A stretch of DNA of 64,000 nt from Candidatus Parcubacteria bacterium (lineage in GTDB: Bacteria; Patescibacteriota; Minisyncoccia; SURF-38), in assembly GCA_003599335.1 (NCBI GenBank), contig QZJN01000001.1:6167-70166 (forward strand), written 5' to 3'. Shown piece after piece: positions 47,524 to 63,737 of this stretch; within the stretch, counting starts at the first letter, position 1, and each line of letters starts with the position of its first letter. Made by a program: the position numbers and the translations under genes. The notes beneath the pieces were generated by a model. The model did no database searches. It was not told where the DNA came from and saw nothing but the letters and a program-made list of their open reading frames with translations.

Positions 47524-50166
47524 ATGCTGAATTTTTTATTCGGAGATTCAAACGAGAGGGTGATAAAAAGACTCCGTCCAATTGCCGAACGTATTGGGGA
47601 GTTTGAACAAAAAACCGAAAAGTTATCTAATGAAGAATTAAAACAAAAAACTCAAACCTTTAAGGGAAGTTTGAGTTCGGGGATATCTTTGGAAGATATT
47701 TTGCCAGAGGCTTTTGCTCTTGTTAGAGAAGCCGCTAAAAGAACTTTGAAACAAAGACACTTTGATGTCCAGCTTATGGGCGGGGTGGTTTTGCATGAAG
47801 GTAATATAGCCGAGATGAAAACCGGCGAAGGCAAGACTTTGGTTGCGACTTTATCTGCCTATCTGAATTCTTTATCGGGAGAAGGAGTTCATGTTGTGAC
47901 GGTCAATGACTATTTGGCCAGACGCGATAGCGTTTGGATGGGACAGATTTATCATATGCTCGGCCTTAAGGTTGCATGCATAAATCATGACGCCTCATAT
48001 CTTTATGATCCGACACATATTGAAAAACAAGAAGAAAAAGACAAAGAACGCGATATTTTAGGCAGCTTCAAGGTTATATATGAATTTTTAAAGCCGATAT
48101 CGCGCAAGGAGGCCTATGAGGCTGATATTGTTTATGGAACAAATTCGGAATTCGGATTTGATTATTTAAGAGATAATTTAAGTTATGATAAAAACCAAGT
48201 CGTTCAACGGGGACACCATTACGCAATTGTTGATGAAATTGACTCAATTTTAATTGATGAGGCGCGAACACCCCTTATTATTTCAGCGCCAGACGAAGAG
48301 GCCGGCGAGCTTTATCGTAAATTTGCACAAGTGGCTAAGTATCTTAAACCGGGGACCCATTATCTCGTTGATGAAAAACGTCGGGCGACAACAATTACCG
48401 ACGAAGGCATAGAGGAGGCCCAAAGAAGAGCAGGAATTGGAAATATCTATGAAGCTGGGAATATTCGCTATGCCCACCATTTGGAGCAGGCGGTTCGGGC
48501 TGAAGCTTTATTTAAGCGTGATAAGGATTATGTGGTAAGAGATGGCGATATAGTGATAGTTGATGAATTCACTGGTAGGCTTTTGCCGGGCAGGCGTTAT
48601 TCAGAGGGGCTTCATCAGGCTATTGAAGCAAAAGAGGGTGTTAAAGTGCAAAGAGAATCAAAAACAGTAGCAACAATAACTTTTCAGAATTATTTCAGAT
48701 TATATAAGAAACTTTCCGGAATGACGGGTACGGCTTTAACCAGCGCCCAGGAATTTCATAAAGTTTACAATATTGAAGTTGTGGTAATACCTCCAAATAA
48801 GGCCTTGGCGCGCAAGGATTTGTCAGATGTTATTTATAAAACAGAACAGGCTAAATGGCGTGCCGTTGTAGAAGAGATAAAGTTGCGTCAGCAAACGGGT
48901 CAACCTGTTTTGTGCGGTACAACTTCAATTGAAAAAAACGAAAAATTGAGTGCCATGCTTAAAGTTGCCGGTGTGCAGCACAAAGTTTTAAACGCAAAAA
49001 ATCACGAACAGGATGGTGAAATTATTGCTCAAGCTGGCAAAGCCGGCGCGGTGACTGTCGCGACAAATATCGCTGGAAGAGGAGTTGATATTATCCTTGG
49101 GGGAAATCCGGCTTCGGCCGAGGAAGCCGAGCTGGTGAAAGCCGCAGGCGGCCTACATGTTATTGGAACTGAAAGGCACGAAGCCAGGCGTATTGATAAC
49201 CAACTTCGCGGGCGGGCCGGCAGGCAAGGAGACCCAGGTTCATCGCAATTTTTTGTTTCTTTGGAAGACGATGTTATTAGGGTTTTTGGCGGTGAACGCA
49301 TTAAGGGGTTTATGGAGACGCTGGGTCTGCCAGAAGATGTTCCGATTACTCATGGCATGGTTAGTAAGGCAATTGAATCAGCTCAAGCCAAAATAGAATC
49401 TTTTAATTTTGACGCCCGAAAATATGTTCTTGAGTTTGACGACGTAATGAACAAGCAGCGTCAGTATCTTTATAAATTACGTAGAGATATCGTTGAATCA
49501 GCATCGCAAAACCCTCAAAAAATAAAAGAGCTTGTTTTGGAATATATAAAATCTCAAACAAGAAAGTTGGTTGAATTTCACTTTTCTCAAGAGGGAGGGT
49601 TAAACAAAGACGAATTTAATAAGGTTTTGGTTGCTTGGGCAGGAGATCGGGGCTGGCAGAATATAGTTGAGAAAAATAATAGTGATTTAGAAGCGATCAT
49701 AGAAAGACTAACGGAAAAGTTTAATATCTTATATGAACAAAAAGAAAAAGAAGCCGGAAAAGATATTTTTTTTCAAACACAGAAAAACCTTTTGTTGCAG
49801 GTTATAGACACTTTATGGACCGAGCATATAAATAATATGGAGCATTTAAGAGATTCGGTGCGCTTGAGAGCTTACGGGCAAAGAGATCCCCTTGTTGAAT
49901 ACAAAAAAGAAGGACTAGAATTGTTTAAGCAATTAAAAGAAGCAATTCCGGGATTATTTGTGGCAAATATATTTAAAGTAGGAATGGCGAGTGGAACACA
50001 GAAAGCACAACAACAAGCCGTAGGCTATAAACCTGTAAGCCATAAGAGTTCTACGGCTTACGGCTCGACGTCTGTTAAGGCTGGGGACAAAAAAGTTGGT
50101 CGGAATGATCCGTGCTGGTGCGGTAGTGGTAAAAAGTTCAAGAAGTGTCACGGCAAGGGGAACTAG
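47524..50166 (+). CDS. secA: Preprotein translocase ATPase SecA.
   Basis: DEAD-like motor (KTGEGKTLVATL, DEID). PPXD and helical scaffold domains. C-terminal zinc-binding tail CWCGSGKKFKKCHG. Confidence 0.95.
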   Translation: MLNFLFGDSNERVIKRLRPIAERIGEFEQKTEKLSNEELKQKTQTFKGSLSSGISLEDILPEAFALVREAAKRTLKQRHFDVQLMGGVVLHEGNIAEMKTGEGKTLVATLSAYLNSLSGEGVHVVTVNDYLARRDSVWMGQIYHMLGLKVACINHDASYLYDPTHIEKQEEKDKERDILGSFKVIYEFLKPISRKEAYEADIVYGTNSEFGFDYLRDNLSYDKNQVVQRGHHYAIVDEIDSILIDEARTPLIISAPDEEAGELYRKFAQVAKYLKPGTHYLVDEKRRATTITDEGIEEAQRRAGIGNIYEAGNIRYAHHLEQAVRAEALFKRDKDYVVRDGDIVIVDEFTGRLLPGRRYSEGLHQAIEAKEGVKVQRESKTVATITFQNYFRLYKKLSGMTGTALTSAQEFHKVYNIEVVVIPPNKALARKDLSDVIYKTEQAKWRAVVEEIKLRQQTGQPVLCGTTSIEKNEKLSAMLKVAGVQHKVLNAKNHEQDGEIIAQAGKAGAVTVATNIAGRGVDIILGGNPASAEEAELVKAAGGLHVIGTERHEARRIDNQLRGRAGRQGDPGSSQFFVSLEDDVIRVFGGERIKGFMETLGLPEDVPITHGMVSKAIESAQAKIESFNFDARKYVLEFDDVMNKQRQYLYKLRRDIVESASQNPQKIKELVLEYIKSQTRKLVEFHFSQEGGLNKDEFNKVLVAWAGDRGWQNIVEKNNSDLEAIIERLTEKFNILYEQKEKEAGKDIFFQTQKNLLLQVIDTLWTEHINNMEHLRDSVRLRAYGQRDPLVEYKKEGLELFKQLKEAIPGLFVANIFKVGMASGTQKAQQQAVGYKPVSHKSSTAYGSTSVKAGDKKVGRNDPCWCGSGKKFKKCHGKGN

Positions 50167-51755
50167 AGGATAAAGTCGATCTCCACACGGCCTTCTCCTG
50201 CGCGAATTTCCTTGATAATACTGCGTAGAATCAACTTTCGCTCATCCAGCTCCATAGCCGCCCAAGCAGTATCAAAATCTCTCATCGAAGCCACCAGTTT
50301 TTGGATAGAGGCACCTTTTTGTGCGGTCAGGGACGATAGTGTCGCCAAGCGATCCCGCTCCGTGCGGCTTTTCCCAGTTTCCTCTCGAATTTTCTCAATT
50401 CGCGCTTGGTATTCCTCGATCGTGGAAATACCTCTTTCGTAGGCATCGTGTTGGCGCTGTATCTTGATTGGTTCGAGTGCTATCTCTCGCTCTAAGCGTA
50501 CAATCTCTTTTTCTCGATCCTGCTCGTCTTGCCCCTTTTCCTCGTAGACGATCTTTTCCTGAACTTTAGGATGCGAGTATAGGTTTTTTATGTGATCGAG
50601 TACATCAGCTTCCAATCTCGTGGCGCTCATTACTCGTTGTGAGCAAATGCCTTTGTATTTGTAGCCAGTGCAGATGTACTCAAATGTGATCGTGTTTTTC
50701 CAATTTGGATTTTTCTTTGATCTTGAATGGTATCGTTTTTGGTATCCCACGCCATTTCCGCATCGGATGCATTTAGCGAGGCCTGTAAGGAGCCCGTGTG
50801 ATCGTGCAGCTGCCCCGCGTGCGCTTCTTGTGCGACCGTTACGGATCTCTTGAACTTTATTAAATAGAGGCGGATCGATTATTGGTGTGTGGTTTCCATC
50901 GCCAATGTATCCGAGTTTGCCTCTGCGTCGCCACTCTTTTGTTTTCCTATATTCAGCGTGTCGCCAGCCCCACCACACTTTGCCCATGTAGGTTGGATTG
51001 CACAAAATGTATCGAAGAGCGGCTTTTGACCAGTCGCCACCTCTGCGAGCTTTCCAGCCCTTGCGATTCATTTCAATGACTATCTTCCTGTCTCCTATGC
51101 CTCGTGCGTATTCGTTGAAGATATATTTCACCCGCGTGGCTTCTTCTTCGTTCACAACCACTGTTCTCTTGATTCGTGCGCCGTCTAGTTCTCGTTTAAC
51201 CTCGTAACCATAGGGAACTCGGTTTGGAATGCTTCCAGCTTTTGCTTTTCCCAGCTTTCCCATTTTCATACGCTGGATAATTGCCTTACGCTCCATGTCC
51301 GATCTTAGGTCGGACATTGCCTCAACCATTGTTCCCATTTGGTCTTCGTCGGGTTCATACTCACCAGTTGATTTTGGTTCAAAGGGCGTATTGAGGGCGT
51401 AAGTTTGAATGCTTAATTCTTTGAGTTCGCCTCTTATAACGCCAGCGGCATCTTTGTTTCTGGCAAAGCGATCATAATCTTTGACCACGATGAGATCGAA
51501 TTTGTGTTCACGCGCATCTCGCAACATTGACTGAAGACCGTTTCGCTCCTCGGTAAGGTGACCGCTGATGCCCTCGTCTTTGTATTCTTGGATAAACGAC
51601 CATCCCTTTTCGTTGATGCTTTTGTGACAGCGTTCCAGCTGATCGGGAATGGACGCTTTGCCCTGGGCCTGTTCTTGGGTGCTTACGCGAACGTAAATGA
51701 CCGCTCGTAAGACTTGGGGCTTCTTGTCGATATTCGGTTGGGTCAGATTAAGCAT
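50163..51755 (-). CDS. Large serine recombinase (resolvase/invertase catalytic domain, recombinase domain and zinc ribbon).
   Basis: N-terminus AVIYVRVSTQEQ (catalytic Ser). The ~530-aa length, the central recombinase domain, and Cys clusters (CIRCGNGVGY ... CTGYKYKGICS) are typical of phage/ICE serine integrases. Confidence 0.85.
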   Translation of the reverse strand: MLNLTQPNIDKKPQVLRAVIYVRVSTQEQAQGKASIPDQLERCHKSINEKGWSFIQEYKDEGISGHLTEERNGLQSMLRDAREHKFDLIVVKDYDRFARNKDAAGVIRGELKELSIQTYALNTPFEPKSTGEYEPDEDQMGTMVEAMSDLRSDMERKAIIQRMKMGKLGKAKAGSIPNRVPYGYEVKRELDGARIKRTVVVNEEEATRVKYIFNEYARGIGDRKIVIEMNRKGWKARRGGDWSKAALRYILCNPTYMGKVWWGWRHAEYRKTKEWRRRGKLGYIGDGNHTPIIDPPLFNKVQEIRNGRTRSARGAAARSHGLLTGLAKCIRCGNGVGYQKRYHSRSKKNPNWKNTITFEYICTGYKYKGICSQRVMSATRLEADVLDHIKNLYSHPKVQEKIVYEEKGQDEQDREKEIVRLEREIALEPIKIQRQHDAYERGISTIEEYQARIEKIREETGKSRTERDRLATLSSLTAQKGASIQKLVASMRDFDTAWAAMELDERKLILRSIIKEIRAGEGRVEIDFIL

Positions 51756-52278: not shown

Positions 52279-52818
52279 AATCTCTAATAATTTCTATTGT
52301 TTTCTTTTGCTTTGCTCATAGCTTTCCTAAAAGCCCGTTTGTGAACGTGTCAGGCTGGCTCGCAGTCTTTGGTCGGTTGTTTCTCCGAGACCGCTACCTC
52401 TCACTGTCGGACGGAGTCCCGCTCGGGCTCGCCGCTGATGTTATATCGCCAAGAGGATTAGCCCAACGATATAAGTGATCCCCATAGTGTTTTCTTTTGC
52501 TTACGCTCAAGGAGATTTCCACGGCGTCTCCTCACGCCGAACCTATGAAGTCCGCGCTTTTAATGGCATCCAGAGGGAGGTATATCGCGCGGTTCGCCCA
52601 CCTTCCCCTCCAGCTTTTGTTTTTGATCCCGAGCTTGAACAATCCTTTCCTTTTCTCTTTTCATTACTGCAGGCAAAACGGTCGAGATTGCTTCGGCCAG
52701 TTTGTCTGCAAGGATTGTTTTCTGATCTTGGGACATGGATTAAACAAATAACCACCAGCGCGATGACGTGACGCTGGCGGTTATTTGTTGACGACGTCAT
52801 CGCCGATCGCAATAAAAA

Positions 52819-53964: not shown

Positions 53965-54068
53965 TTTTTTGTTTTAGTGATGGAAATGTGGGCATGACAA
54001 AACATGCCATTTTTTGACATGGCGAAATTTTATTGCTATGCTGAAATAACTTTAATCATTTTAAAAGC

Positions 54069-54257
54069 ATGTCAGAGGAAAAACTTCTAACAATCGAAGA
54101 GGTGGCAGAGAAGCTCCGTGTTAGTACACGGACGATTATTCGCTATATCGAATCAGGTCGACTTAAGGCATCAAAAATCGGTGTGTGGCGCATTAAGGAA
54201 TCTGATCTAGCCCACTTCCTTGAGGAGTCGAGCAACGTTAAGCGCAAGAAGAAATAA
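54069..54257 (+). CDS. Excisionase/MerR-type HTH DNA-binding protein.
   Basis: LLTIEEVAEKLRVSTRTIIRYIESGRLKASKIGVWRIKESDL matches the HTH_17 / excisionase-family helix-turn-helix. Confidence 0.65.
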   Translation: MSEEKLLTIEEVAEKLRVSTRTIIRYIESGRLKASKIGVWRIKESDLAHFLEESSNVKRKKK

Positions 54258-54258
54258 T

Positions 54259-56613
54259 ATGCCTGACAAATCCTTATCAGAACGAGATATTTGCACCAAA
54301 TTCATCACACCCGCGATCACGAAAGCAGGATGGGATTTGCAGCACCAGATTCGAGAAGAGGTATCTTTTACCGCTGGACGTATTAATGTCCGCGGAAAGA
54401 CTATTTCGAGGGGAGAGAGGAAGCGTGCCGATTATATTTTGTATTATAAAAACAATCTTCCGATCGCTCTTATTGAGGCAAAAGACGCAAGTCATTCCGT
54501 CGGCGATGGTATGCAGCAGGCTCTCGGGTATGGGCAGGTGCTTGATATCCCGTTTGTATATAGCTCAAATGGTTCGGGGTTTCTTGAGCACGATTTTTTT
54601 AGTGGTTCTGAAAAGGAGATTTCTATTGATGCCTTTCCTGATCCCGCCGAGCTTTATCGCAGATATCGAGAGCAAAAGAAGCTAACCCCAGAAATAGAAG
54701 AGGCGGTTCTTCAGGATTATTATCAGGGTTTAACATCGCATGAGCCGCGATATTACCAGCGCGTAGCAATAAATCGCGCTGTTGAGGCGGTAGCACGGAA
54801 TCAGAAGCGGATTTTGTTGGTAATGGCTACTGGAACTGGAAAGACCTATACCGCCTTTCAGATAATCTGGCGGCTTTGGAAAGCACGGAAGAAAAAGCGA
54901 ATACTTTTCCTTGTTGATCGCACAGCTCTCGCAACGCAGACCATGCAGGGCGATTTTCGCCACTTTGGCGATAAGATGACGAAGATTGAAGGGCGAATCG
55001 CCGATCCCTCCTATGAGGTCTACATTGCTTTATATCAGGGACTCACAAGCCATGAAGAGCAGAATAAGCTTTTTAAACAATTTTCTTCCGATTTTTTTGA
55101 TCTCGTTGTCGTTGATGAGTGTCACAGGGGAAGCGCAAAAGAGAATTCTGTGTGGCGTGAAATTCTCGAATACTATTCCGACGCAACTCAAATTGGTCTG
55201 ACTGCTACGCCAAAAGAGACGAAGGATATCAGCACGCAAGACTACTTTGGGGATGCGGTATACACCTATTCTTTAAAACAGGGAATCGAGGATGGATTCT
55301 TGGCTCCCTACAAAGTTATTCGTTATGTTCTCGATAAAGATATTGAGTGGCGGCCGAATGAATTAGTGCGCGATCAGCACGGAAATCCGATTGAGGATCG
55401 TGTATATAATGCTTCCGATTACGATCGCAACATTGTTATCAAGAATCGAACTAAGCTCGTTGCGCAAAAGATTACCGAATTTGTGCGGGATACTGATCCG
55501 ATGCAAAAGGCGATTATTTTTTGCGTTGATATTGATCATGCCGAACGAATGCGGGAAGAACTGGTAAACGCCAACAGCGAATACGTATCCAAGAATCATC
55601 GCTATGTGGTACGCATCACGGGCGATAATGACGAGGGTAAAAAGGAGATTGAGAATTTCATCAACCCCGAGTCGCCATACCCAGTATTGGTTACAACTTC
55701 CAAGCTTCTAACTACTGGTGTCGATGCTCAAACATGTAAACTCATTGTTCTCGATGCTCCCATAAATTCGATGAGCGAATTCAAGCAGATTATTGGTCGT
55801 GGGACTCGCGTGAACGAGGATTACGGCAAGTTTTATTTCACGATCATGGATTTTCGAGGCGTAACGCGGCTGTTCGCTGATCCTAACTTTGATGGAGAGC
55901 CTGTAAAGATCTACGAACCAGATGATAAGACGACCATCGGGCAACACATTGAGGAAGAAACAGTTGATCCGAGTGAAATTAAAGAAGAGAATCCGCAGGA
56001 GGAAATTTTGATTGACCCTACTCTTGAGGAAGGAGAGAAGAAGGAGAAGGTGGTAGTCACGCGAGGAGTTGAATTCGATGTGGCGACAAAAATGATTCAG
56101 TATATTGACCCTGCCACGGGCAAACTTATTGCAGAGAATCTTACGGATTACTCCAAGAAGCAGATTTTAGGTACGTTGCCATCGCTCGATGCATTTATTA
56201 AAGAGTGGTCTGCCGCGGAGCGCAAAGATGCGATTATTCAGGAGTTAGAAAGCAGAGGTGTGCCGCTGGAAGAACTGCGAAAGGAGATAGGGTTAAATGT
56301 CGATGTTTTTGATTTGGTGCTACACGTGGCTTATAACCGAAAGCCGCTCACACGCTCAGAACGGGTGGCAAACGTGCGCAAAGGGGATTATTTTGCCAAA
56401 TACGAGGGTAGGGCGCGGCAGGTTATCGAGGCATTACTTGATAAGTACGCTGACCAAGGTAGTATCGCCATCGACGATATTGGCGATCTTGAAGTTTCGC
56501 CATTTGCAGAAATAGGGACTCCTGTTGAGATAGTTAATGATATTTTTGGTGGCCGAGAGCAATACTTTGGAGTTTTGAAAACTTTACAAGAAAAACTCTA
56601 CGCACTTAACTAG
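54259..56613 (+). CDS. hsdR: Type I restriction enzyme R subunit (HsdR).
   Basis: N-terminal PD-(D/E)xK nuclease (ICTKFITPAI...GW; IALIEAKD). SF2 helicase motifs I LLVMATGTGKT and II DECHR. The hsdM and hsdS genes lie immediately downstream. Start placed at MPDKS. Confidence 0.8.
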   Translation: MPDKSLSERDICTKFITPAITKAGWDLQHQIREEVSFTAGRINVRGKTISRGERKRADYILYYKNNLPIALIEAKDASHSVGDGMQQALGYGQVLDIPFVYSSNGSGFLEHDFFSGSEKEISIDAFPDPAELYRRYREQKKLTPEIEEAVLQDYYQGLTSHEPRYYQRVAINRAVEAVARNQKRILLVMATGTGKTYTAFQIIWRLWKARKKKRILFLVDRTALATQTMQGDFRHFGDKMTKIEGRIADPSYEVYIALYQGLTSHEEQNKLFKQFSSDFFDLVVVDECHRGSAKENSVWREILEYYSDATQIGLTATPKETKDISTQDYFGDAVYTYSLKQGIEDGFLAPYKVIRYVLDKDIEWRPNELVRDQHGNPIEDRVYNASDYDRNIVIKNRTKLVAQKITEFVRDTDPMQKAIIFCVDIDHAERMREELVNANSEYVSKNHRYVVRITGDNDEGKKEIENFINPESPYPVLVTTSKLLTTGVDAQTCKLIVLDAPINSMSEFKQIIGRGTRVNEDYGKFYFTIMDFRGVTRLFADPNFDGEPVKIYEPDDKTTIGQHIEEETVDPSEIKEENPQEEILIDPTLEEGEKKEKVVVTRGVEFDVATKMIQYIDPATGKLIAENLTDYSKKQILGTLPSLDAFIKEWSAAERKDAIIQELESRGVPLEELRKEIGLNVDVFDLVLHVAYNRKPLTRSERVANVRKGDYFAKYEGRARQVIEALLDKYADQGSIAIDDIGDLEVSPFAEIGTPVEIVNDIFGGREQYFGVLKTLQEKLYALN

Positions 56614-56621
56614 ACTAACTT

Positions 56622-58046
56622 ATGCCGATCGAAAATCTTATCAAAACAATCCAAAATATAATGCGCAAAGACCAGGGCGTTGCTGGTGATGGTCAGCGCA
56701 TTGAGCAGATAGTGTGGATGTTATTTCTGAAGATTTTTGATGATCAGGAAAAGTATTACGAGCTTCGAGATCAGAAGTATCGTTCTCCAATACCCGAGAA
56801 GCTTCGTTGGAGAAATTGGGCGGCAAACCCCGAAGGAATCACAGGCGATGAGTTATTGGAATTTGTAAACCAAAAGCTCTTTCCAGGTCTCAAGAATCTC
56901 TCAGTTGATTCCAGTGATAGGCGCGGCCTTCTTGTTCGTACCGCTTTTGAGGATGCCTATAACTACATGAAATCAGGGACGCTGATTCGACAGGTGGTAA
57001 ACAGGATCAATGAGATTGATTTCAACAAGAAGTCAGACCGTCACTTACTTAATGATATCTACGAGAAGCTTCTGAAAGAACTTCAGGGTGCGGGTAATTA
57101 CGGCGAGTTTTATACGCCTCGGCCGCTTACAAAGTTTATTGTTGAGATGATCGACCCGAAGCTTGGTGAAAAGGTGCTCGACCCCTCGTGTGGTACTGGC
57201 GGTTTCTTGGTGAATACGATTGAGTATGTCCGTGAGAATTATGTAAAGAGCCATGCAGATGAAAAGAAACTCCATGATTCGATTCATGGTGTTGAGCTCA
57301 AGTCATTGCCACATCTTCTAGCACTTACAAACATGATTCTTCATGGGATTGAGTTGCCCGACAATGTTCGTCGCGATGATATGCTTTCTCGGCCACTAAC
57401 GGAATATGGCCCTAAGGATCGTGTCGATGTAATTGTGGCGAATCCTCCCTTTGGTGCTTCGGTTAAGGACGGAACTGAGAAGAATTTTCCAAGTGAAATG
57501 CGCACCAAAGAAACTGCCGATCTCTTTTTGATTTTATTCATTCATCTTTTGAAAGATGGTGGCCGAGCGGGCATCGTATTGCCCGACGGATCGCTTTCTG
57601 GTGAAGGTGTTAAGGCTCGGATTAAAGAAAAATTGCTTGCAGAATGTAATGTACACACAATTGTTCGGTTGCCACAGGGTGTGTTTAGTCCCTATGCTGG
57701 TGTAAACACCAACCTCGTCTTTTTTGAGAAGGGGAAACCGACTAAGGAAATTTGGTACTACCAGTTGCCGCTTCCAGAAGGAATTAAGCAATACACAAAG
57801 GGGCGTGGCATTACGCACGATGAATTTGATTCTGTTCGAAAATGGTGGAAGAAGCGCGTTACGAACGAGAACGCTTGGAAAGTCTCAATAGATAAAATAA
57901 AAGAACGCAATTACAACATTGACATTAAAAATCCCAATGGTGGTACTTCGGTTAACTTCGGAGACCCTGTGGATGTTCTTGAAAAAATCGTTAACTCCGA
58001 GAAAGAAATCATTGCGCTTTTGAATGAAATTAAGAAAGAATTATGA
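56622..58046 (+). CDS. hsdM: Type I R-M N6-adenine DNA methyltransferase (HsdM).
   Basis: Motif I DPSCGTGGFL. Motif IV NPPFG. N-terminal HsdM_N region. Confidence 0.9.
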   Translation: MPIENLIKTIQNIMRKDQGVAGDGQRIEQIVWMLFLKIFDDQEKYYELRDQKYRSPIPEKLRWRNWAANPEGITGDELLEFVNQKLFPGLKNLSVDSSDRRGLLVRTAFEDAYNYMKSGTLIRQVVNRINEIDFNKKSDRHLLNDIYEKLLKELQGAGNYGEFYTPRPLTKFIVEMIDPKLGEKVLDPSCGTGGFLVNTIEYVRENYVKSHADEKKLHDSIHGVELKSLPHLLALTNMILHGIELPDNVRRDDMLSRPLTEYGPKDRVDVIVANPPFGASVKDGTEKNFPSEMRTKETADLFLILFIHLLKDGGRAGIVLPDGSLSGEGVKARIKEKLLAECNVHTIVRLPQGVFSPYAGVNTNLVFFEKGKPTKEIWYYQLPLPEGIKQYTKGRGITHDEFDSVRKWWKKRVTNENAWKVSIDKIKERNYNIDIKNPNGGTSVNFGDPVDVLEKIVNSEKEIIALLNEIKKEL

Positions 58047-59236
58047 ATCATTGGCCGCTTAAAAAATTAGGTGATGAATCGATCCTCATGATGACTAGCG
58101 GTGGAACTCCATCTCGCTCTAAATCTGAATTTTATGGAGGTAAGATTCTTTGGCTAAAATCTGGTGAATTGAATGATAATCAAAAGATTTCCGATTCAGA
58201 AGAAAAGATCACTGATCAAGCGGTTAAGAACTCTAGTGCCAAACTTTTCCCGCCTCATACAGTGCTTTTTGCAATGTATGGAGCTACCGCAGGAAAATTA
58301 GGCATATTAGATGTAGAAGCAACCACAAATCAAGCAGTTGCAGGAATGATTTGTAACGACAGCGTTCTATTTTATAAGTACCTTTTTTATTTTTTGCTAT
58401 ACACACGAGAAAAAATCATTGCTAATGCTTGGGGAGGAGCGCAACCAAATTTAAGCCAGACAATAATCAAGAAGTTTGAAATACCTGTTCCGTCTATTTC
58501 AGAACAAAAGAAAATAGTTACGAAACTTGAAAGTTTACTCGCGAAGGAAAATCAGGTAAAGCAACTACGAGAACAAACACAAGTCGATACGGACAGTTTA
58601 ATTTTCGCAGAACTACATAAGATTTTTAAGGAAGGCAAAGCAAAAGGATGGGAAGAAAAAGATTTGGGCAATGTGCTAGAAAAGATTGTTGGTGGTGGAA
58701 CTCCGTCAAAGGCTAACCCCTTATATTGGGACGGAGATATTCCCTGGGCAAGCGTGAAGGATATTAAAGAGGGCCAGTACACATTAGCCGAAACACAAGA
58801 TTTTATAACCAAGGAGGGACTGCAAAATAGTGCTTCAAATATTGTCCCCGCTGGATCACTGATTATTTCAACAAGAATGGGACTTGGTCGTATTGTTAAA
58901 ACAGAGATTGATGTTGCTATAAATCAAGATCTAAAGGCCTTATACCCAAAAAAAGAATTAAACAATGATTACCTGCTTTGGTTCTATATTAGCAAGGCCC
59001 AGGAAGTAATCGCTAGTGGAACTGGGGCAACCGTTTCTGGTGTTCGTTTGGACGACATTAAGAGCATAAAAATTCTATTACCATCTCTGACGGATCAAAA
59101 GAAAATTGTTGATCATCTCACCCTGCTTTTGGAGAAAATTAAAAACACCAAGTCTTTACAGGATGTAACTTATAGTGAGATTGGTATTTTAGAACAATCA
59201 ATTTTATCAAAAGCATTTAGCGGAAGCTTTGTTTAA
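58043..59236 (+). CDS. hsdS: Type I R-M specificity subunit (HsdS) with two target-recognition domains.
   Basis: Duplicated TRD pattern (…SGGTPSRSKSEFYGGKILWLKSGEL… and …GGGTPSKANPLYWDGDIPWASVKDI…) separated by conserved helical spacers. Start overlaps the hsdM stop (ATGA). Confidence 0.8.
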   Translation: MNHWPLKKLGDESILMMTSGGTPSRSKSEFYGGKILWLKSGELNDNQKISDSEEKITDQAVKNSSAKLFPPHTVLFAMYGATAGKLGILDVEATTNQAVAGMICNDSVLFYKYLFYFLLYTREKIIANAWGGAQPNLSQTIIKKFEIPVPSISEQKKIVTKLESLLAKENQVKQLREQTQVDTDSLIFAELHKIFKEGKAKGWEEKDLGNVLEKIVGGGTPSKANPLYWDGDIPWASVKDIKEGQYTLAETQDFITKEGLQNSASNIVPAGSLIISTRMGLGRIVKTEIDVAINQDLKALYPKKELNNDYLLWFYISKAQEVIASGTGATVSGVRLDDIKSIKILLPSLTDQKKIVDHLTLLLEKIKNTKSLQDVTYSEIGILEQSILSKAFSGSFV

Positions 59237-59240
59237 TTTC

Positions 59241-59402
59241 ATGGAACTTTCTAAGAAAACAGTTGAAGAATTCAGAGAGATATTCAAGAAAGAATACGGC
59301 GTTGAGTATTCGGATCAGGAAGCTTGGGAAGCAGCGCATAATCTTGTAGGCTTTTTTGATTTGCTCTTAAAAATTGATCACAGGCAGAAAGAGGGTCAAT
59401 AA
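59241..59402 (+). CDS. Small 53-aa hypothetical ORF between hsdS and the 967-aa gene.
   Basis: MELSKKTVEEFREIFKKEYGVEYSDQEAWEAAHNLVGFFDLLLKIDHRQKEGQ. Tightly packed (4 bp after the hsdS stop, 14 bp before the next gene). No motif. Confidence 0.3.
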   Translation: MELSKKTVEEFREIFKKEYGVEYSDQEAWEAAHNLVGFFDLLLKIDHRQKEGQ

Positions 59403-59416
59403 TAATCATTTTCGAT

Positions 59417-62320
59417 ATGTCTTCGTTACGACAATTAAAGCAACAAATAAAATTCAGTTTAAACAATTTGAAAGCTGAAAACTCCCATCATGATTTTGAG
59501 GCTATTTGTCGACATTTTGCACGAAAACGATTAGGCCTGAATATAATTCCCGCTACAGGGCCCGTTTCAGCTGGAGGAGACCAGGGGAGAGATTTCGAAA
59601 CTTATGAAATATTACCAGAGGCAGTTCCAGAACTTCGAGGAACAAGACAGGTTATAGACAAGAAAGCCGCTTTTGCTTGCACTACGCAGGCCGAAGGTCT
59701 TTTATCCAAGATAAAAGCGGATGTTAATAAAATTATTACTCAAGGTAATAGGGTTGATATAGTTTATTTTTTTTCAGTGCAGGATCTACCTGTGTCCGAG
59801 CGGCACGATCTGCAAAAGTGGGCACTAGAAACACATAAAATTACCTTAGAAGTTTTTGATGGCGAAGCGCTTTCTGAAGACCTGACTGAGAGAGACTTAT
59901 TTTGGGTAGCCCAGGAATATTTACATATTCCTGCCGAGTTATTCCCACCCGTTGATAATATTGATTACTTGAAGCTGAAAGAAAAGTGGGAAACGAGAGA
60001 GTTGTCAGTTCCCAATTACGCCGAATTCGACGAGATAAAAAGCTTAGCTAGGAAATCATTATTCGATAAATCCCTGAATCAAGATATTCCATTTTGGTTA
60101 GATAAGTTGGCAAAGTTCGCAGCAATTAAAGATATTTCCTCGGAATTTAAGAGGAAAGCTCTTTATGAGTTAATAGCCATTCGCATGAGGGGCATGCGCG
60201 ACATGGTTGGTTGGGAGCATTACACGCACGAATACTTTGCAGCTCATGAGAGTTTTAACCATCAAGTTGAAGCGCAAGAGGCCACGGTTGTTTTAGGGTA
60301 TGCCTTCGGGGCATCAGTAAGAGGGGCGGCAAATTTTGAAGAGAGTCAATTAAAGACGTGGATCAAGCTTATCGAGGATTATACGGATCACGAGCTAAGT
60401 AAAGATTATCCCGTTGCAATAAGGGCAGTTTTATACGAATTAAAAGGTCATCAACTACTTACTAATCCGTACAATAGGAAAATTGATGAAGGGTTGGATT
60501 GGTGGCTCAAGCTTGTTGATCTTATTGAGCAATCACCATTATTCCCACTTGAAAGATTTTCTGATGTTCTGACCGTTCTCATTCCGCTTATAGGTGACCA
60601 TCCAAAATTTGAAGAATTGAAAATCAAAACCGATGCTCTTATCGCACAACGAATAGGTGGTTTTGCGGTTGCTGATAAATGCAGAGATAGAGCAATTGAG
60701 TATAGAAAAAACGATGAATTGTTAAAAGCCCTTCGAGAATTTCATAGTGCCAAGATAAATTGGTTTGCAAACGAAACTCTATATGGATCATTGCTTTCAA
60801 TGATGATCATATCGGAGACCTACTTTGAGCTAGGTCTTTTATTTGCGGCAAAATACTACGCTATGGCAGTTACTTTTGTTGCGAGTCGTTCTCCAGATGA
60901 CAAAATAAAGCCATTCATTACCAGAGGGCTTTCACAGGTTGCGGAAATCGAATACGGCAATGGCGAATGGGGTCATTTTATGGAACACGCCGATCTAAGC
61001 CTGAGGTCTTTAGGTGTACACTCGAAGACCATTGAAGATCCAATTTCTGAAAAGATTTATGAGAAAACACTGTTTTACTCTTCAATGGTTTATGTTTTTG
61101 CGAAGGTACTTGATGGTAAGAAACTTTTTAATTATGTGGCAGATAGAGTTAAGAAATGGAATATTTCTGAGCTTAACGATGATTTGATTCCGATAGCAGA
61201 GAAAACCTGGGCAGAGGTTAAAGCAGAAAATATGCTTGAGAAAATCAAAGCCTCGCTTGAGGGCAGACCGTTTAATGATGTTGGATCTACCCGATCTGTT
61301 TTGTGGGAAGCATGCGGGATTAGTTGGAAGTGTTCTTGGAACAATACGTTAAGGGGATGCGCGAGAGCAGAACATTTTATATCGCTAGTCCAAATAATTC
61401 TTGCGGATATCGCAGATAGAGATTTTTACTTATTAAAAACAGACGCACAAATAAAGTTCATTTTCACAGATAAGTTTCATATCGAGCGGGTGCCTACAAA
61501 TGATTATGTCGCGTGGGATATATATCTTCCAACGCATAATCCAGATGGAAGGAGGGAAATTGAGGAATATCATGCGCAAATTCTAAGTATGGCAGCTGCA
61601 GTCATTGCTGATTTGTCTTTGTTACCATCCGAACAGACACTAGAGAAAATCAAGGATTTATATAAGCAAGGTCTTGTGTCGAAAGCGCTGTCAGGAAATT
61701 CTTATGAAGTTTTGTACATCGACTTGAACCCCGAAGAGTTATTTAATGAACTGATCTCATTACCACAATTAGACTATTTGCAGTCTATGGAGATAGGGAA
61801 TAAGCCCCATAAATTACTAAACTGGGAGAGCTCTTTATTAAAAGGATACAGCCCAAAAGAAGAGCGTGAGAAGATTGAAAATAGGTATACGCGATCAATA
61901 TTGCCAATAAGGAAGACTATTGAAAAATTAAAGAAGGACCCAAAATTTCAAGAGATGGTAAAGAGATTAAGGTCGGATGGATGGAAAGATTGGCACATTC
62001 TTATGTCATTGGGGATGATTGCTGTAAATTTTCGCGTTAATAAGATAGGCTACAAGTCGTTTGAATCCATGCGAGAACTATTTGTTAAGGAGATGAACAC
62101 TGAAGAAACGAATGATTCAACCCCAGTTCCCCTTGAAGAATTCAACGAAAAAGCACTTAGACTGTCACTGTTCATGAGTATGCCGTCGACTCTCAAAATC
62201 TTTGGGCTTGAGATTAAGACTCAAACACCAAATTCCAAGGCACTTGAGCATTTTTTGGCAAAGAGGCTTAATTATTGGAATAACGATATCGAGCACAAAG
62301 ATATCCTTGCTGTTTCTTAG
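59417..62320 (+). CDS. Uncharacterised 967-aa protein with an N-terminal Mrr-like PD-(D/E)xK restriction-endonuclease-type motif. Candidate defence gene.
   Basis: The N-terminal ~150 aa contain HDFE...GGDQGRDFE...(FACTTQ), resembling the Mrr_cat D...GDxGxD...(Q)xK arrangement. The remaining ~800 aa are largely helical with no P-loop and no recognisable motif. Sits directly 3' of a complete Type I R-M operon. Confidence 0.6.
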   Translation: MSSLRQLKQQIKFSLNNLKAENSHHDFEAICRHFARKRLGLNIIPATGPVSAGGDQGRDFETYEILPEAVPELRGTRQVIDKKAAFACTTQAEGLLSKIKADVNKIITQGNRVDIVYFFSVQDLPVSERHDLQKWALETHKITLEVFDGEALSEDLTERDLFWVAQEYLHIPAELFPPVDNIDYLKLKEKWETRELSVPNYAEFDEIKSLARKSLFDKSLNQDIPFWLDKLAKFAAIKDISSEFKRKALYELIAIRMRGMRDMVGWEHYTHEYFAAHESFNHQVEAQEATVVLGYAFGASVRGAANFEESQLKTWIKLIEDYTDHELSKDYPVAIRAVLYELKGHQLLTNPYNRKIDEGLDWWLKLVDLIEQSPLFPLERFSDVLTVLIPLIGDHPKFEELKIKTDALIAQRIGGFAVADKCRDRAIEYRKNDELLKALREFHSAKINWFANETLYGSLLSMMIISETYFELGLLFAAKYYAMAVTFVASRSPDDKIKPFITRGLSQVAEIEYGNGEWGHFMEHADLSLRSLGVHSKTIEDPISEKIYEKTLFYSSMVYVFAKVLDGKKLFNYVADRVKKWNISELNDDLIPIAEKTWAEVKAENMLEKIKASLEGRPFNDVGSTRSVLWEACGISWKCSWNNTLRGCARAEHFISLVQIILADIADRDFYLLKTDAQIKFIFTDKFHIERVPTNDYVAWDIYLPTHNPDGRREIEEYHAQILSMAAAVIADLSLLPSEQTLEKIKDLYKQGLVSKALSGNSYEVLYIDLNPEELFNELISLPQLDYLQSMEIGNKPHKLLNWESSLLKGYSPKEEREKIENRYTRSILPIRKTIEKLKKDPKFQEMVKRLRSDGWKDWHILMSLGMIAVNFRVNKIGYKSFESMRELFVKEMNTEETNDSTPVPLEEFNEKALRLSLFMSMPSTLKIFGLEIKTQTPNSKALEHFLAKRLNYWNNDIEHKDILAVS

Positions 62321-62329
62321 AATATTCAA

Positions 62330-62521
62330 ATGAGTAGACGATCATTTCATGGCAACTTAGGTTCATTACTCAACAAGCTGTTTACGCTGGTCATTTTTCT
62401 GATTCTGTTCAAGCTTTTTGGAGATTCGGTTTTAGATGCCGCTGTGATAGGATTGATATCATTAGCGGTTTATCCTTTAGTCGGAATGCTTTTAAGAGCC
62501 GTCGGGATATGGCGTTACTAA
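62330..62521 (+). CDS. Small two-TM membrane protein (speculative).
   Basis: 63 aa: LFTLVIFLILFKLF ... VIGLISLAVYPLVGMLL. Confidence 0.3.
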   Translation: MSRRSFHGNLGSLLNKLFTLVIFLILFKLFGDSVLDAAVIGLISLAVYPLVGMLLRAVGIWRY

Positions 62522-62750: not shown

Positions 62751-62900
62751 ATGAGATGTCCAAAATGTAGCCAAGAAATGTTTATAAAACGAGAAGATAC
62801 AAGTTCTGATTCCAGAAATAATAAGCAATACGACCGTAAAGTGTACTGGTGTAAAAAGGATGATGTATGGGTCAGCATCGAGATTCCGAAAGAAGTATAA
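62751..62900 (+). CDS. Small zinc-ribbon protein (speculative).
   Basis: MRCPKCSQEM...VYWCKKDD: C-x2-C ... C pattern. Shares the upstream motif aaaaat(g/a)ccatgggaaat with the SET gene. Confidence 0.35.
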   Translation: MRCPKCSQEMFIKREDTSSDSRNNKQYDRKVYWCKKDDVWVSIEIPKEV

Positions 62901-62908
62901 AAAATACC

Positions 62909-63397
62909 ATGGGAAATAGAGAACTTTTAGTAGTAAAGAAGAATAAGAAAGGTTATGGAGTGTACGCTGGTAGGATGTATAAAAAGGGAGAGGTAATTTG
63001 TGTAATGCATGGTAAAAAGAAAACACCTCATACACTTCATTACCATGGGGCAAGTTTTCGTGAAGCCCAAATAAACCCTCTCCAGATTGGCCCAAAAACA
63101 TACTTGGAGCTGCGAGCGCCTTATCGGTATTTCAATCATTCTTGCCAGCCCAATGCTGGAGTACAAGATTCTTCAAAACTTTTTGCATTAAAGCCCATTA
63201 AGAAGGGTGAAGAAGTTACTTTTGACTACTCTACAACAATTGATGAAAGTTTCTTCTGTAAATGCGGTTCTAAAAGATGTCGTGGAGTTATTGCCGACTT
63301 TTTTGCTCTTCCGTTAAAATTACAGAAGTTTTACATTCGGCAGAAAGCAGTGCCGGCGTTTATTGAAAAGAAATACAAAGTTCGTTATGGAAAGTAA
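62909..63397 (+). CDS. SET-domain protein (putative protein-lysine methyltransferase).
   Basis: Core SET motifs RYFNHSCQPN and EEVTFDY. Post-SET Cys cluster CKCGSKRCRG. Start placed at MGNRELL (62909); the ORF track begins at 62867. Confidence 0.8.
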   Translation: MGNRELLVVKKNKKGYGVYAGRMYKKGEVICVMHGKKKTPHTLHYHGASFREAQINPLQIGPKTYLELRAPYRYFNHSCQPNAGVQDSSKLFALKPIKKGEEVTFDYSTTIDESFFCKCGSKRCRGVIADFFALPLKLQKFYIRQKAVPAFIEKKYKVRYGK

Positions 63398-63737
63398 AAA
63401 ATACACCCTAAGATTTCGGAGGGTAAATCGGGATACTTTTTTGCAAATAAAGAAAGGCACGAAAAAAGTTGAAACTCGGGCCGCAACCAAAAAGTATAAA
63501 GATATTAAGGTTGGCGATACATTAGTTTTTGCATGCGAAAAAGAAAGGTTTCAACGAAAAGCAAAGAGGGTTAATTATTTTAAATCGGTTTTGGCAATGC
63601 TGAAAAAATACAAGGTTAAAGACGTAGAGCCTAAGCTTTCAAAAAAAGATGATTTGGAGGAGAAATATAATAGCTACCCCAAATATAAAGAAAAAATTAA
63701 GAAGTTCGGCTTAGTAGCTTTAGAGTTAAAAAAATAA
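63387..63737 (+). CDS. ASCH-domain (PUA-like beta-barrel) protein.
   Basis: Carries the ASCH signature GxKxxExR (IKKGTKKVETR). About 115 aa, typical of stand-alone ASCH proteins. Overlaps the SET gene end by 11 bp (translational coupling). Confidence 0.7.
   Translation: MESKKYTLRFRRVNRDTFLQIKKGTKKVETRAATKKYKDIKVGDTLVFACEKERFQRKAKRVNYFKSVLAMLKKYKVKDVEPKLSKKDDLEEKYNSYPKYKEKIKKFGLVALELKK

Follow-up and report, generated by a model that had tools for sequence, protein, structure and literature searches.

What does the large uncharacterised gene that follows a Type I restriction-modification (R-M) operon in Candidatus Parcubacteria contig QZJN01000001.1 (GCA_003599335.1) encode, and does it belong to that operon? 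We analysed a stretch of 64,000 nt from this contig (forward strand, positions 6,167-70,166; hereafter the window), for which a first-pass annotation had proposed a candidate novel defence module, consisting of a nuclease-like protein of 967 amino acids (aa) and a 53-aa partner, fused onto the 3' end of an hsdR-hsdM-hsdS operon. The coordinates and open reading frames (ORFs) behind this proposal were correct, with a complete operon ending at 59236 and the two ORFs following at gaps of 4 and 14 bp, and both ORFs are, judging from sequence comparison, real genes. The 967-aa protein (hereafter the large protein) is, on balance, probably a self-contained, NTPase-free immune sensor-effector with an Mrr-like nuclease, from which the 53-aa ORF and the R-M operon are separate. 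The two ORFs lie as follows.

59241-59402, forward strand: 53-aa ORF, with an ATG start at 59241, 4 bp past the hsdS stop
59417-62320, forward strand: 967-aa ORF, beginning 14 bp past the 53-aa ORF

The large protein is 100% identical to C4553_00255 (P0001), a hypothetical protein of a Candidatus Parcubacteria metagenome-assembled genome. We identified at least 656 relatives in a word-indexed search, and nearly all of the top 120 listed are 960-1,030 aa long, with 99-100% query coverage. An exhaustive search retrieved 1,633 homologous clusters at 50% identity (626 below 1e-30), and the gene was present in 269 of 185,579 species-representative genomes. Its bacterial hosts include phyla of the Candidate Phyla Radiation (CPR), Acidobacteriota, Chloroflexota, Actinomycetota (Streptomyces), Bacteroidota and Proteobacteria, and its archaeal hosts include Methanobacterium, Methanosarcina and Bathyarchaeia. 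This fixed architecture, together with a sparse and patchy distribution over both domains of life, points to the horizontal spread of a single functional unit. As to a phage origin, no family match was found in 50,697 phage genomes, IMG/VR or PHROGs. The full-length protein had no match in Pfam, NCBIfam, PADLOC, PHROGs or PDB sequences. Thus, the first-pass view of an uncharacterised defence candidate holds insofar as the family is unannotated and lies in defence-rich contexts, and fails as regards a two-gene module coupled to R-M.

An AlphaFold2 model built on a 59-sequence alignment (predicted local distance difference test (pLDDT) 89, predicted template modelling score (pTM) 0.81) gives the following architecture.

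59417-59956, forward strand: N-terminal domain (N-domain; residues 1-180), Mrr-like PD-(D/E)xK fold, the presumed nuclease effector
59558-59599, forward strand: signature motif GPVSAGGDQGRDFE (residues 48-61), collinear with the GDGGID hairpin of Escherichia coli Mrr
59960-61255, forward strand: tetratricopeptide repeat (TPR)-like alpha-solenoid (residues 182-613), all-helical in the model, the presumed sensor or scaffold
61259-62317, forward strand: conserved C-terminal domain (residues 615-967), a beta-beta-alpha-beta-beta-beta unit followed by a helical bundle

The modelled N-domain comprises two helices, a badly modelled stretch (residues 46-80) and a beta-alpha-beta-alpha-beta-alpha succession, and contains the alpha-beta-beta-beta-alpha-beta core of the restriction-endonuclease-like fold. 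Structure prediction therefore agrees with the PD-(D/E)xK-type N-terminus that had been proposed from its motifs. The C-terminal domain bears the motifs NRYxR, LRxxGW(L/K)DWH and RYNYWxDDIEH; no PDB or Pfam relative was found for it by profile search or by scanning 60 members singly, which gave only scattered chance matches. A pattern scan confirmed the reported absence of P-loop and helicase motifs, finding no Walker A, DEAD or similar motif, and no STAND-type (signal transduction ATPase with numerous domains) NTPase was identified by Pfam, NCBIfam or PADLOC, with only helical repeats modelled between the N- and C-terminal domains. We also rejected a HEPN reading of RREIEEYH, which had been raised as a weak possibility, because the motif is not conserved: it falls in a gappy region of the alignment, and all four Rx4-6H matches (positions 261, 530, 646 and 712) are non-conserved across 246 homologues.

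Residues 31-60, which include GGDQGRDFE, form the most conserved 30-residue segment of the family (mean identity 0.82), and E28, D55, D59, E61, C88, K98, D102 and D148 are each kept in 240-246 of the 246 aligned sequences. Compared by eye, the N-domain is collinear with E. coli Mrr, matching FE(28) to FE, GD55-Q-G-R-D59 to GDGGID, the beta-3 strand F-A-C88-T to Y-V-Q-A-K, YFFS to ITTSGF and D148-G-E to VDGE. Across the family, beta-3 reads F86-A-C88-(T/S)89-x-Q91-K92, with C88 invariant and positions 91 and 92 variable (Q-A in the window's protein), an invariant Lys98/Asp102 pair lies on the helix after beta-3, and a distant Cohnella relative retains a canonical S-A-K at the (D/E/Q)xK place. 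Profile searches gave nothing significant: Pfam detected no Mrr_cat in the full protein, nor in 52 N-domains scanned singly at E up to 10 (chance matches only), the N-domain profile had no match in PDB, and its hhalign comparison with E. coli Mrr returned a probability of 0.35, with D148-G-E the only segment aligned. The assignment of an Mrr-type N-terminus thus stands for the conserved motif and the modelled fold and fails for a match to Mrr_cat; the N-domain is, as far as the model can be trusted, Mrr-like at the level of fold and not at that of sequence models, and it looks like an active but atypical nuclease site.

These residues also bear on whether the N-domain is an enzyme at all. It could be a nuclease-like fold without catalysis that, like the one in Rpb5, serves in binding or oligomerisation, the protein then being a TPR scaffold or regulator that has no role in defence. 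We consider this quite improbable, as the near-absolute conservation of five acidic residues and K98 across Bacteria and Archaea would be hard to explain without chemistry, and the sparse, patchy distribution does not fit a housekeeping gene. In a sister clade, described below, the N-domain is replaced by a genuine Cap4 nuclease, which also speaks for a comparable enzymatic function.

In structural comparison, the N-domain comes closest to the modification-dependent endonucleases AspBHI and MspJI, and it also matches the nuclease domain of a Type ISP enzyme. The gene moreover recurs beside R-M genes and, as Mrr is, would be a one-gene system, all of which would suit a Type IV-like restriction endonuclease, dependent on modification or structure, whose helical body binds DNA and which cuts directly without abortive infection. 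This is an unlikely account of the protein, since Pfam revealed neither an SRA or winged-helix domain nor any other DNA reader, the body instead has a TPR-like fold, the usual ligands of which are proteins or peptides, and Avs4, which senses proteins, has an effector of the same fold as the N-domain. Being exchanged for a Cap4 nuclease is likewise typical of effector modules.

This exchange was found among plasmids, in which tblastn identified nine full-length homologues of the large protein, and three Bacteroidota proteins that match residues 184-960 only (BLASTP 5e-55, 822 columns). The N-termini of two of the three, from Hymenobacter, correspond to Pfam Cap4_nuclease PF14130 (4.9e-8 and 2.2e-5, the second just below the gathering score); the third, from Fibrella, had no Pfam match. 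The Cap4 sister clade comprises 19 clusters, 12 of which are annotated PF14130, and PADLOC models of Lamassu LmuA were matched by four of 45 scanned family members. The N-domain alone was identified on other bodies in Cohnella, Pseudosulfitobacter and Rhodococcus plasmids. Swapping one nuclease module for another on one body is the pattern of the effector domains of Avs (antiviral STAND), Dsr and cyclic oligonucleotide-based antiphage signalling systems (CBASS), and the family shows the combination characteristic of Avs, an exchangeable N-terminal effector with a C-terminal TPR-like sensor. The swap between Mrr-like and Cap4 domains thus supports the N-domain being the effector, and the remainder a sensor or regulator.

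Two side observations concern these proteins. In two Hymenobacter plasmids, a 416-aa gene without a Pfam match lies directly before the Cap4 sister-clade gene (L093:5909-7159 and L096:3804-5054) and could be a clade-specific partner, and an HTH-HipA pair comes after the sister-clade gene in both. Separately, three of the 45 family members weakly matched the PADLOC model Aga_REase-TIR-PNTD1-PNTD2 (E ~1e-3), which may be due to the Mrr-like N-domain.

The large gene is standalone, as an all-versus-all BLAST of 682 neighbours from about 80 genomes identified no conserved operon partner. Its neighbourhoods are often mobile or defensive. Plasmid gene orders were, in Streptomyces, a CHAT protein, the homologue, a HEPN protein and a restriction endonuclease; in Mycobacterium, a restriction endonuclease, Shedu, the homologue and three insertion sequence elements; in Blastomonas, an ABC-three-component system, the homologue and a reverse transcriptase; and in Agrobacterium, a Tn3 transposase, a recombinase, the homologue, an integrase and a DUF4433 plus macro domain. 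Three separate metagenome loci had as neighbours TIR_2 and TniQ, AAA_15/21 and an integrase, and an integrase and TraG, respectively. CPR relatives neighbour UvrD/PLD helicases, a serine recombinase, TraG, Type ISP, an SMC-like ATPase, a Cas4-like nuclease and SocA_Panacea, and serine recombinases homologous to that of the window adjoin family members in L089, L091, L040 and L085. A census of 148 neighbours from ~29 genomes included integrases, resolvases, Lamassu, Type I/IIG R-M, NERD-UvrD and DrmD, and R-M-type methyltransferases lie within 10 kb in seven further loci, directly upstream in three. Co-occurrence with defence genes, which the first-pass annotation had named as a check on homologues, was seen as frequent proximity to mobile and defence genes, and not as any conserved neighbour, with some loci being of housekeeping type. 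Immediately upstream of the Methanobacterium homologue, we noted a 256-aa gene without a Pfam match (L001:9154-9924), and PolD DP2 is also nearby.

The same neighbourhoods raise the question of whether the gene serves the mobile element itself, through maintenance of a plasmid or an integrative and conjugative element, entry exclusion or addiction, with the nuclease targeting competing or lost elements. Near relatives do reside in elements that encode both a large serine recombinase and a TraG/TrwB coupling protein, nine plasmids carry the gene, and integrases and transposases are common neighbours. However, position and neighbours vary inside the elements, as in cargo regions and not backbone modules, mobile-element genes are missing from the 10 kb around several chromosomal copies, and defence cargo on mobile elements would explain the same data, leaving service to the element a rather improbable function.

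The pairing with the 53-aa ORF was examined in the same way. The shared direction of the two genes, their tight gaps of 4 bp and 14 bp, and the retention of the adjacency between hsdS and the large gene in the closest relative would be compatible with a two-gene module, either toxin/antitoxin or sensor/effector, appended to Type I R-M in the manner of PrrC/RloC. In that closest relative (P0002, L088; 81% identical), however, the large gene starts 7 bp after hsdS, the 53-aa ORF and its spacer being gone as a clean ~175-bp indel, and no homologue of the 53-aa ORF was found beside any of the 80 genomic homologues of the large gene. The 53-aa ORF has its own family of 43 homologous clusters (42-88 aa), found so far only in Patescibacteria/metagenome records and without a Pfam family. 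Its members lie 7 bp behind Type III mod-res operons in L102-L105 (L102:6001-6189), overlap the start of a KAP NTPase (L101:6001-6189), precede an unrelated 1132-aa protein by 2 bp (L106:6001-6186), follow a ResIII helicase and RE_endonuc protein (L099:4420-4599), lie inside a DUF2726/zeta-toxin cluster (L108:6001-6177), or stand in front of a serine recombinase (L091:15947-16078, reverse strand). Given its absence in L088, these varied contexts and the lack of conserved adjacency in all comparisons made, we rejected a partnership of the 53-aa ORF with the large protein. It behaves as an independent junction gene, apparently promiscuous among CPR defence and mobile islands, and its family may be of use for marking where defence cassettes join in CPR genomes.

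The 1132-aa protein of L106 (L106:6188-9586) is of separate interest. It has no Pfam or PHROG match and no similarity to the window's 967-aa protein. Its gene is carried by a serine-recombinase element recovered in the same groundwater study, and the protein could be a further uncharacterised candidate for defence.

The remaining part of the proposed module is the R-M operon, which lies with its surroundings as follows.

50163-51755, reverse strand: large serine recombinase at the left end of the island (Pfam Resolvase/Recombinase/Zn_ribbon_recom)
54069-54257, forward strand: HTH_17 (excisionase/MerR-like) gene, heading the gene string (Pfam HTH_17, 2.4e-17)
54220-59236, forward strand: Type I R-M operon hsdR-hsdM-hsdS, an adjoining, separate defence module
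54220-56613, forward strand: hsdR (Pfam HSDR_N, ResIII, Helicase_C, EcoEI_R_C)
56622-58046, forward strand: hsdM (Pfam HsdM_N, N6_Mtase)
58043-59236, forward strand: hsdS (Pfam Methylase_S, twice)

We found hsdS adjacent to the large gene only in the window and in L088, and large genes of 58% identity or less do not adjoin Type I R-M, so the supposed fusion onto the operon is restricted to these two loci. In L089 and L090 (58% identity), an HTH_17 gene directly abuts the large-gene homologue, overlapping its start (L089:6792-6968), and is 68% identical in tblastn to the window ORF at 54069-54257, which there heads the R-M operon. This suggests that the HTH_17 gene and the large gene were separated by the insertion of hsdRMS and the 53-aa ORF, and these look like cargo in that position. 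The limits of R-M adjacency, the placement of HTH_17 and the composition of the island all argue against functional coupling of the PrrC/RloC kind. That type was itself rejected, as the adjacency is not conserved and no P-loop, ABC-ATPase or anticodon nuclease domain is present in the large protein. We therefore regard a two-gene module appended to Type I R-M as very improbable; within one integrative island, the 53-aa ORF and the Type I operon each form a separate module beside the large gene.

At the left end of this island, the serine recombinase converges on secA and overlaps its 3' end (stop 50166) by 4 bp. The GC content is 0.44-0.48 over 50-58 kb against ~0.38 on either side, with a step at 50 kb, and hsdS, the 53-aa ORF and the 967-aa gene have host-like GC, which makes the island a mosaic in composition. 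In a search of the window, neither att-site repeats for the island nor a tRNA were found. The best promoter-like site (54014-54042) is close to the HTH_17 gene. The mechanically called start of hsdR is a TTG at 54220, which overlaps the HTH_17 gene, and the true start looks like an ATG (MPDKSL...) near 54259, right behind the HTH_17 stop. Upstream of a 143-aa ORF adjoining the recombinase, we noted an 18-nt direct repeat (TATTGTTTTCTTTTGCTT) at 52295-52312 and 52485-52502, whose copies are 94% identical and 190 bp apart. Downstream of the 967-aa gene lie three ORFs of 54-63 aa, and the first (62330-62521) has a counterpart of 72% identity in L088. Next come a SET-domain protein (62867-63397) and an ASCH-domain protein (63363-63737), whose ends overlap.

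How, then, might the large protein work? As a self-contained sensor-effector, it would use its Mrr-like PD-(D/E)xK N-domain to cut DNA, and its remaining parts would keep this effector inactive. A ligand from the invader, most probably a protein, would be recognised by the TPR-like solenoid and C-terminal domain, upon which the nuclease domains would be released or assembled. These would then cut DNA, leading to abortive infection or to direct restriction. What the analysis shows is the fold of the N-domain with its invariant cluster of acidic residues and lysine, a middle part of TPR type, a gene that stands alone, the Cap4 exchange and the mobile and defensive contexts, whereas nuclease activity, ligand sensing, the mode of activation and a defence phenotype are inferred.

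Several observations weigh against this reading. The canonical (D/E/Q)xK lysine on beta-3 is not conserved and an invariant Cys88 lies in that strand, so that catalysis is putative; the putative catalytic hairpin (residues 44-80) has a pLDDT below 50 in both models; and no sequence method ties the N-domain to Mrr_cat (PF04471). The main clade was matched by zero PADLOC models. The neighbourhood evidence is qualitative, and the same census of 148 neighbours also contains the housekeeping enzymes GcpE, PDH and urocanase. Some loci lie among housekeeping genes, and the Methanobacterium homologue, between nrdD and nitroreductase, is apparently a housekeeping-type exception to the mobile and defensive contexts.

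The large protein is nonetheless, by comparative inference, a strong and testable candidate, although the idea of a fused module does not hold. A broader reading, which we offer only as a tentative possibility, would place it in an unrecognised pan-prokaryotic group of NTPase-independent pattern-recognition nucleases, extending from CPR bacteria to methanogens and Streptomyces. Its TPR solenoid and fold-novel C-terminal domain would sense a conserved invader component and thereby turn on an atypical Mrr-like active site, in which the invariant Cys88 and the helix-borne Lys98 would replace the canonical (D/E)xK motif, and, independently, the 53-aa family would be a novel 'junction' element travelling between CPR defence cassettes.

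If confirmed, this would be a large single-gene immune system, of at least 1,600 clusters at 50% identity, missed by Pfam, NCBIfam and PADLOC v2. The family reaches Archaea and the CPR bacteria, whose defence repertoire is poorly known, and the natural swap of Mrr-like and Cap4 effectors offers an experimental handle.

Among known systems, Avs proteins such as Avs4 (PDB 8dgf) have an Mrr-like nuclease effector, as in the N-domain of the large protein, but contain a central STAND (NACHT/NB-ARC-like) NTPase with Walker A and B motifs, which the large protein lacks. MspJI/AspBHI and E. coli Mrr differ in the SRA-like or winged-helix DNA reader, for which Pfam found no counterpart here, and in their QxK/ExK lysine, which is not conserved in the family. 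The Cap4 nuclease (PF14130) of Lamassu LmuA and CBASS takes the place of the Mrr-like domain on the same sensor body in the sister clade; the window's protein does not carry this domain, and the all-versus-all comparison of neighbours associated no LmuB/SMC or CD-NTase partner with the family.

Dsr1 and other proteins with an Avs7-type sensor lack an NTPase and, in a single gene, fuse an enzymatic effector at the N-terminus directly to a large TPR-like sensor (PMC13581612). The large protein follows the same design principle, with a nuclease as its effector where Dsr1 has SIR2; the PADLOC DSR1/DSR2 models had no match in 45 family members at E up to 1. Upx likewise consists of one large protein, widespread in bacteria and archaea, that combines a PD-(D/E)xK nuclease with a big sensor lacking annotation and has no STAND NTPase; its divergent nuclease is C-terminal and its N-terminal sensor beta-rich (PMC13601566). 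Compared with Upx, the domain order of the large protein is reversed and its sensor is alpha-helical, with no PADLOC match. According to the PADLOC scans, none of the Avs, Dsr1 and Upx-type systems appears to be detectably homologous to the large protein. This type of architecture is known, but no library searched describes the family itself, its C-terminal domain or its variant of the active site. If the family is confirmed, the design of Dsr1 and Upx, in which an effector is joined to a TPR sensor without an NTPase, would gain a new sensor body and an unusual nuclease site.

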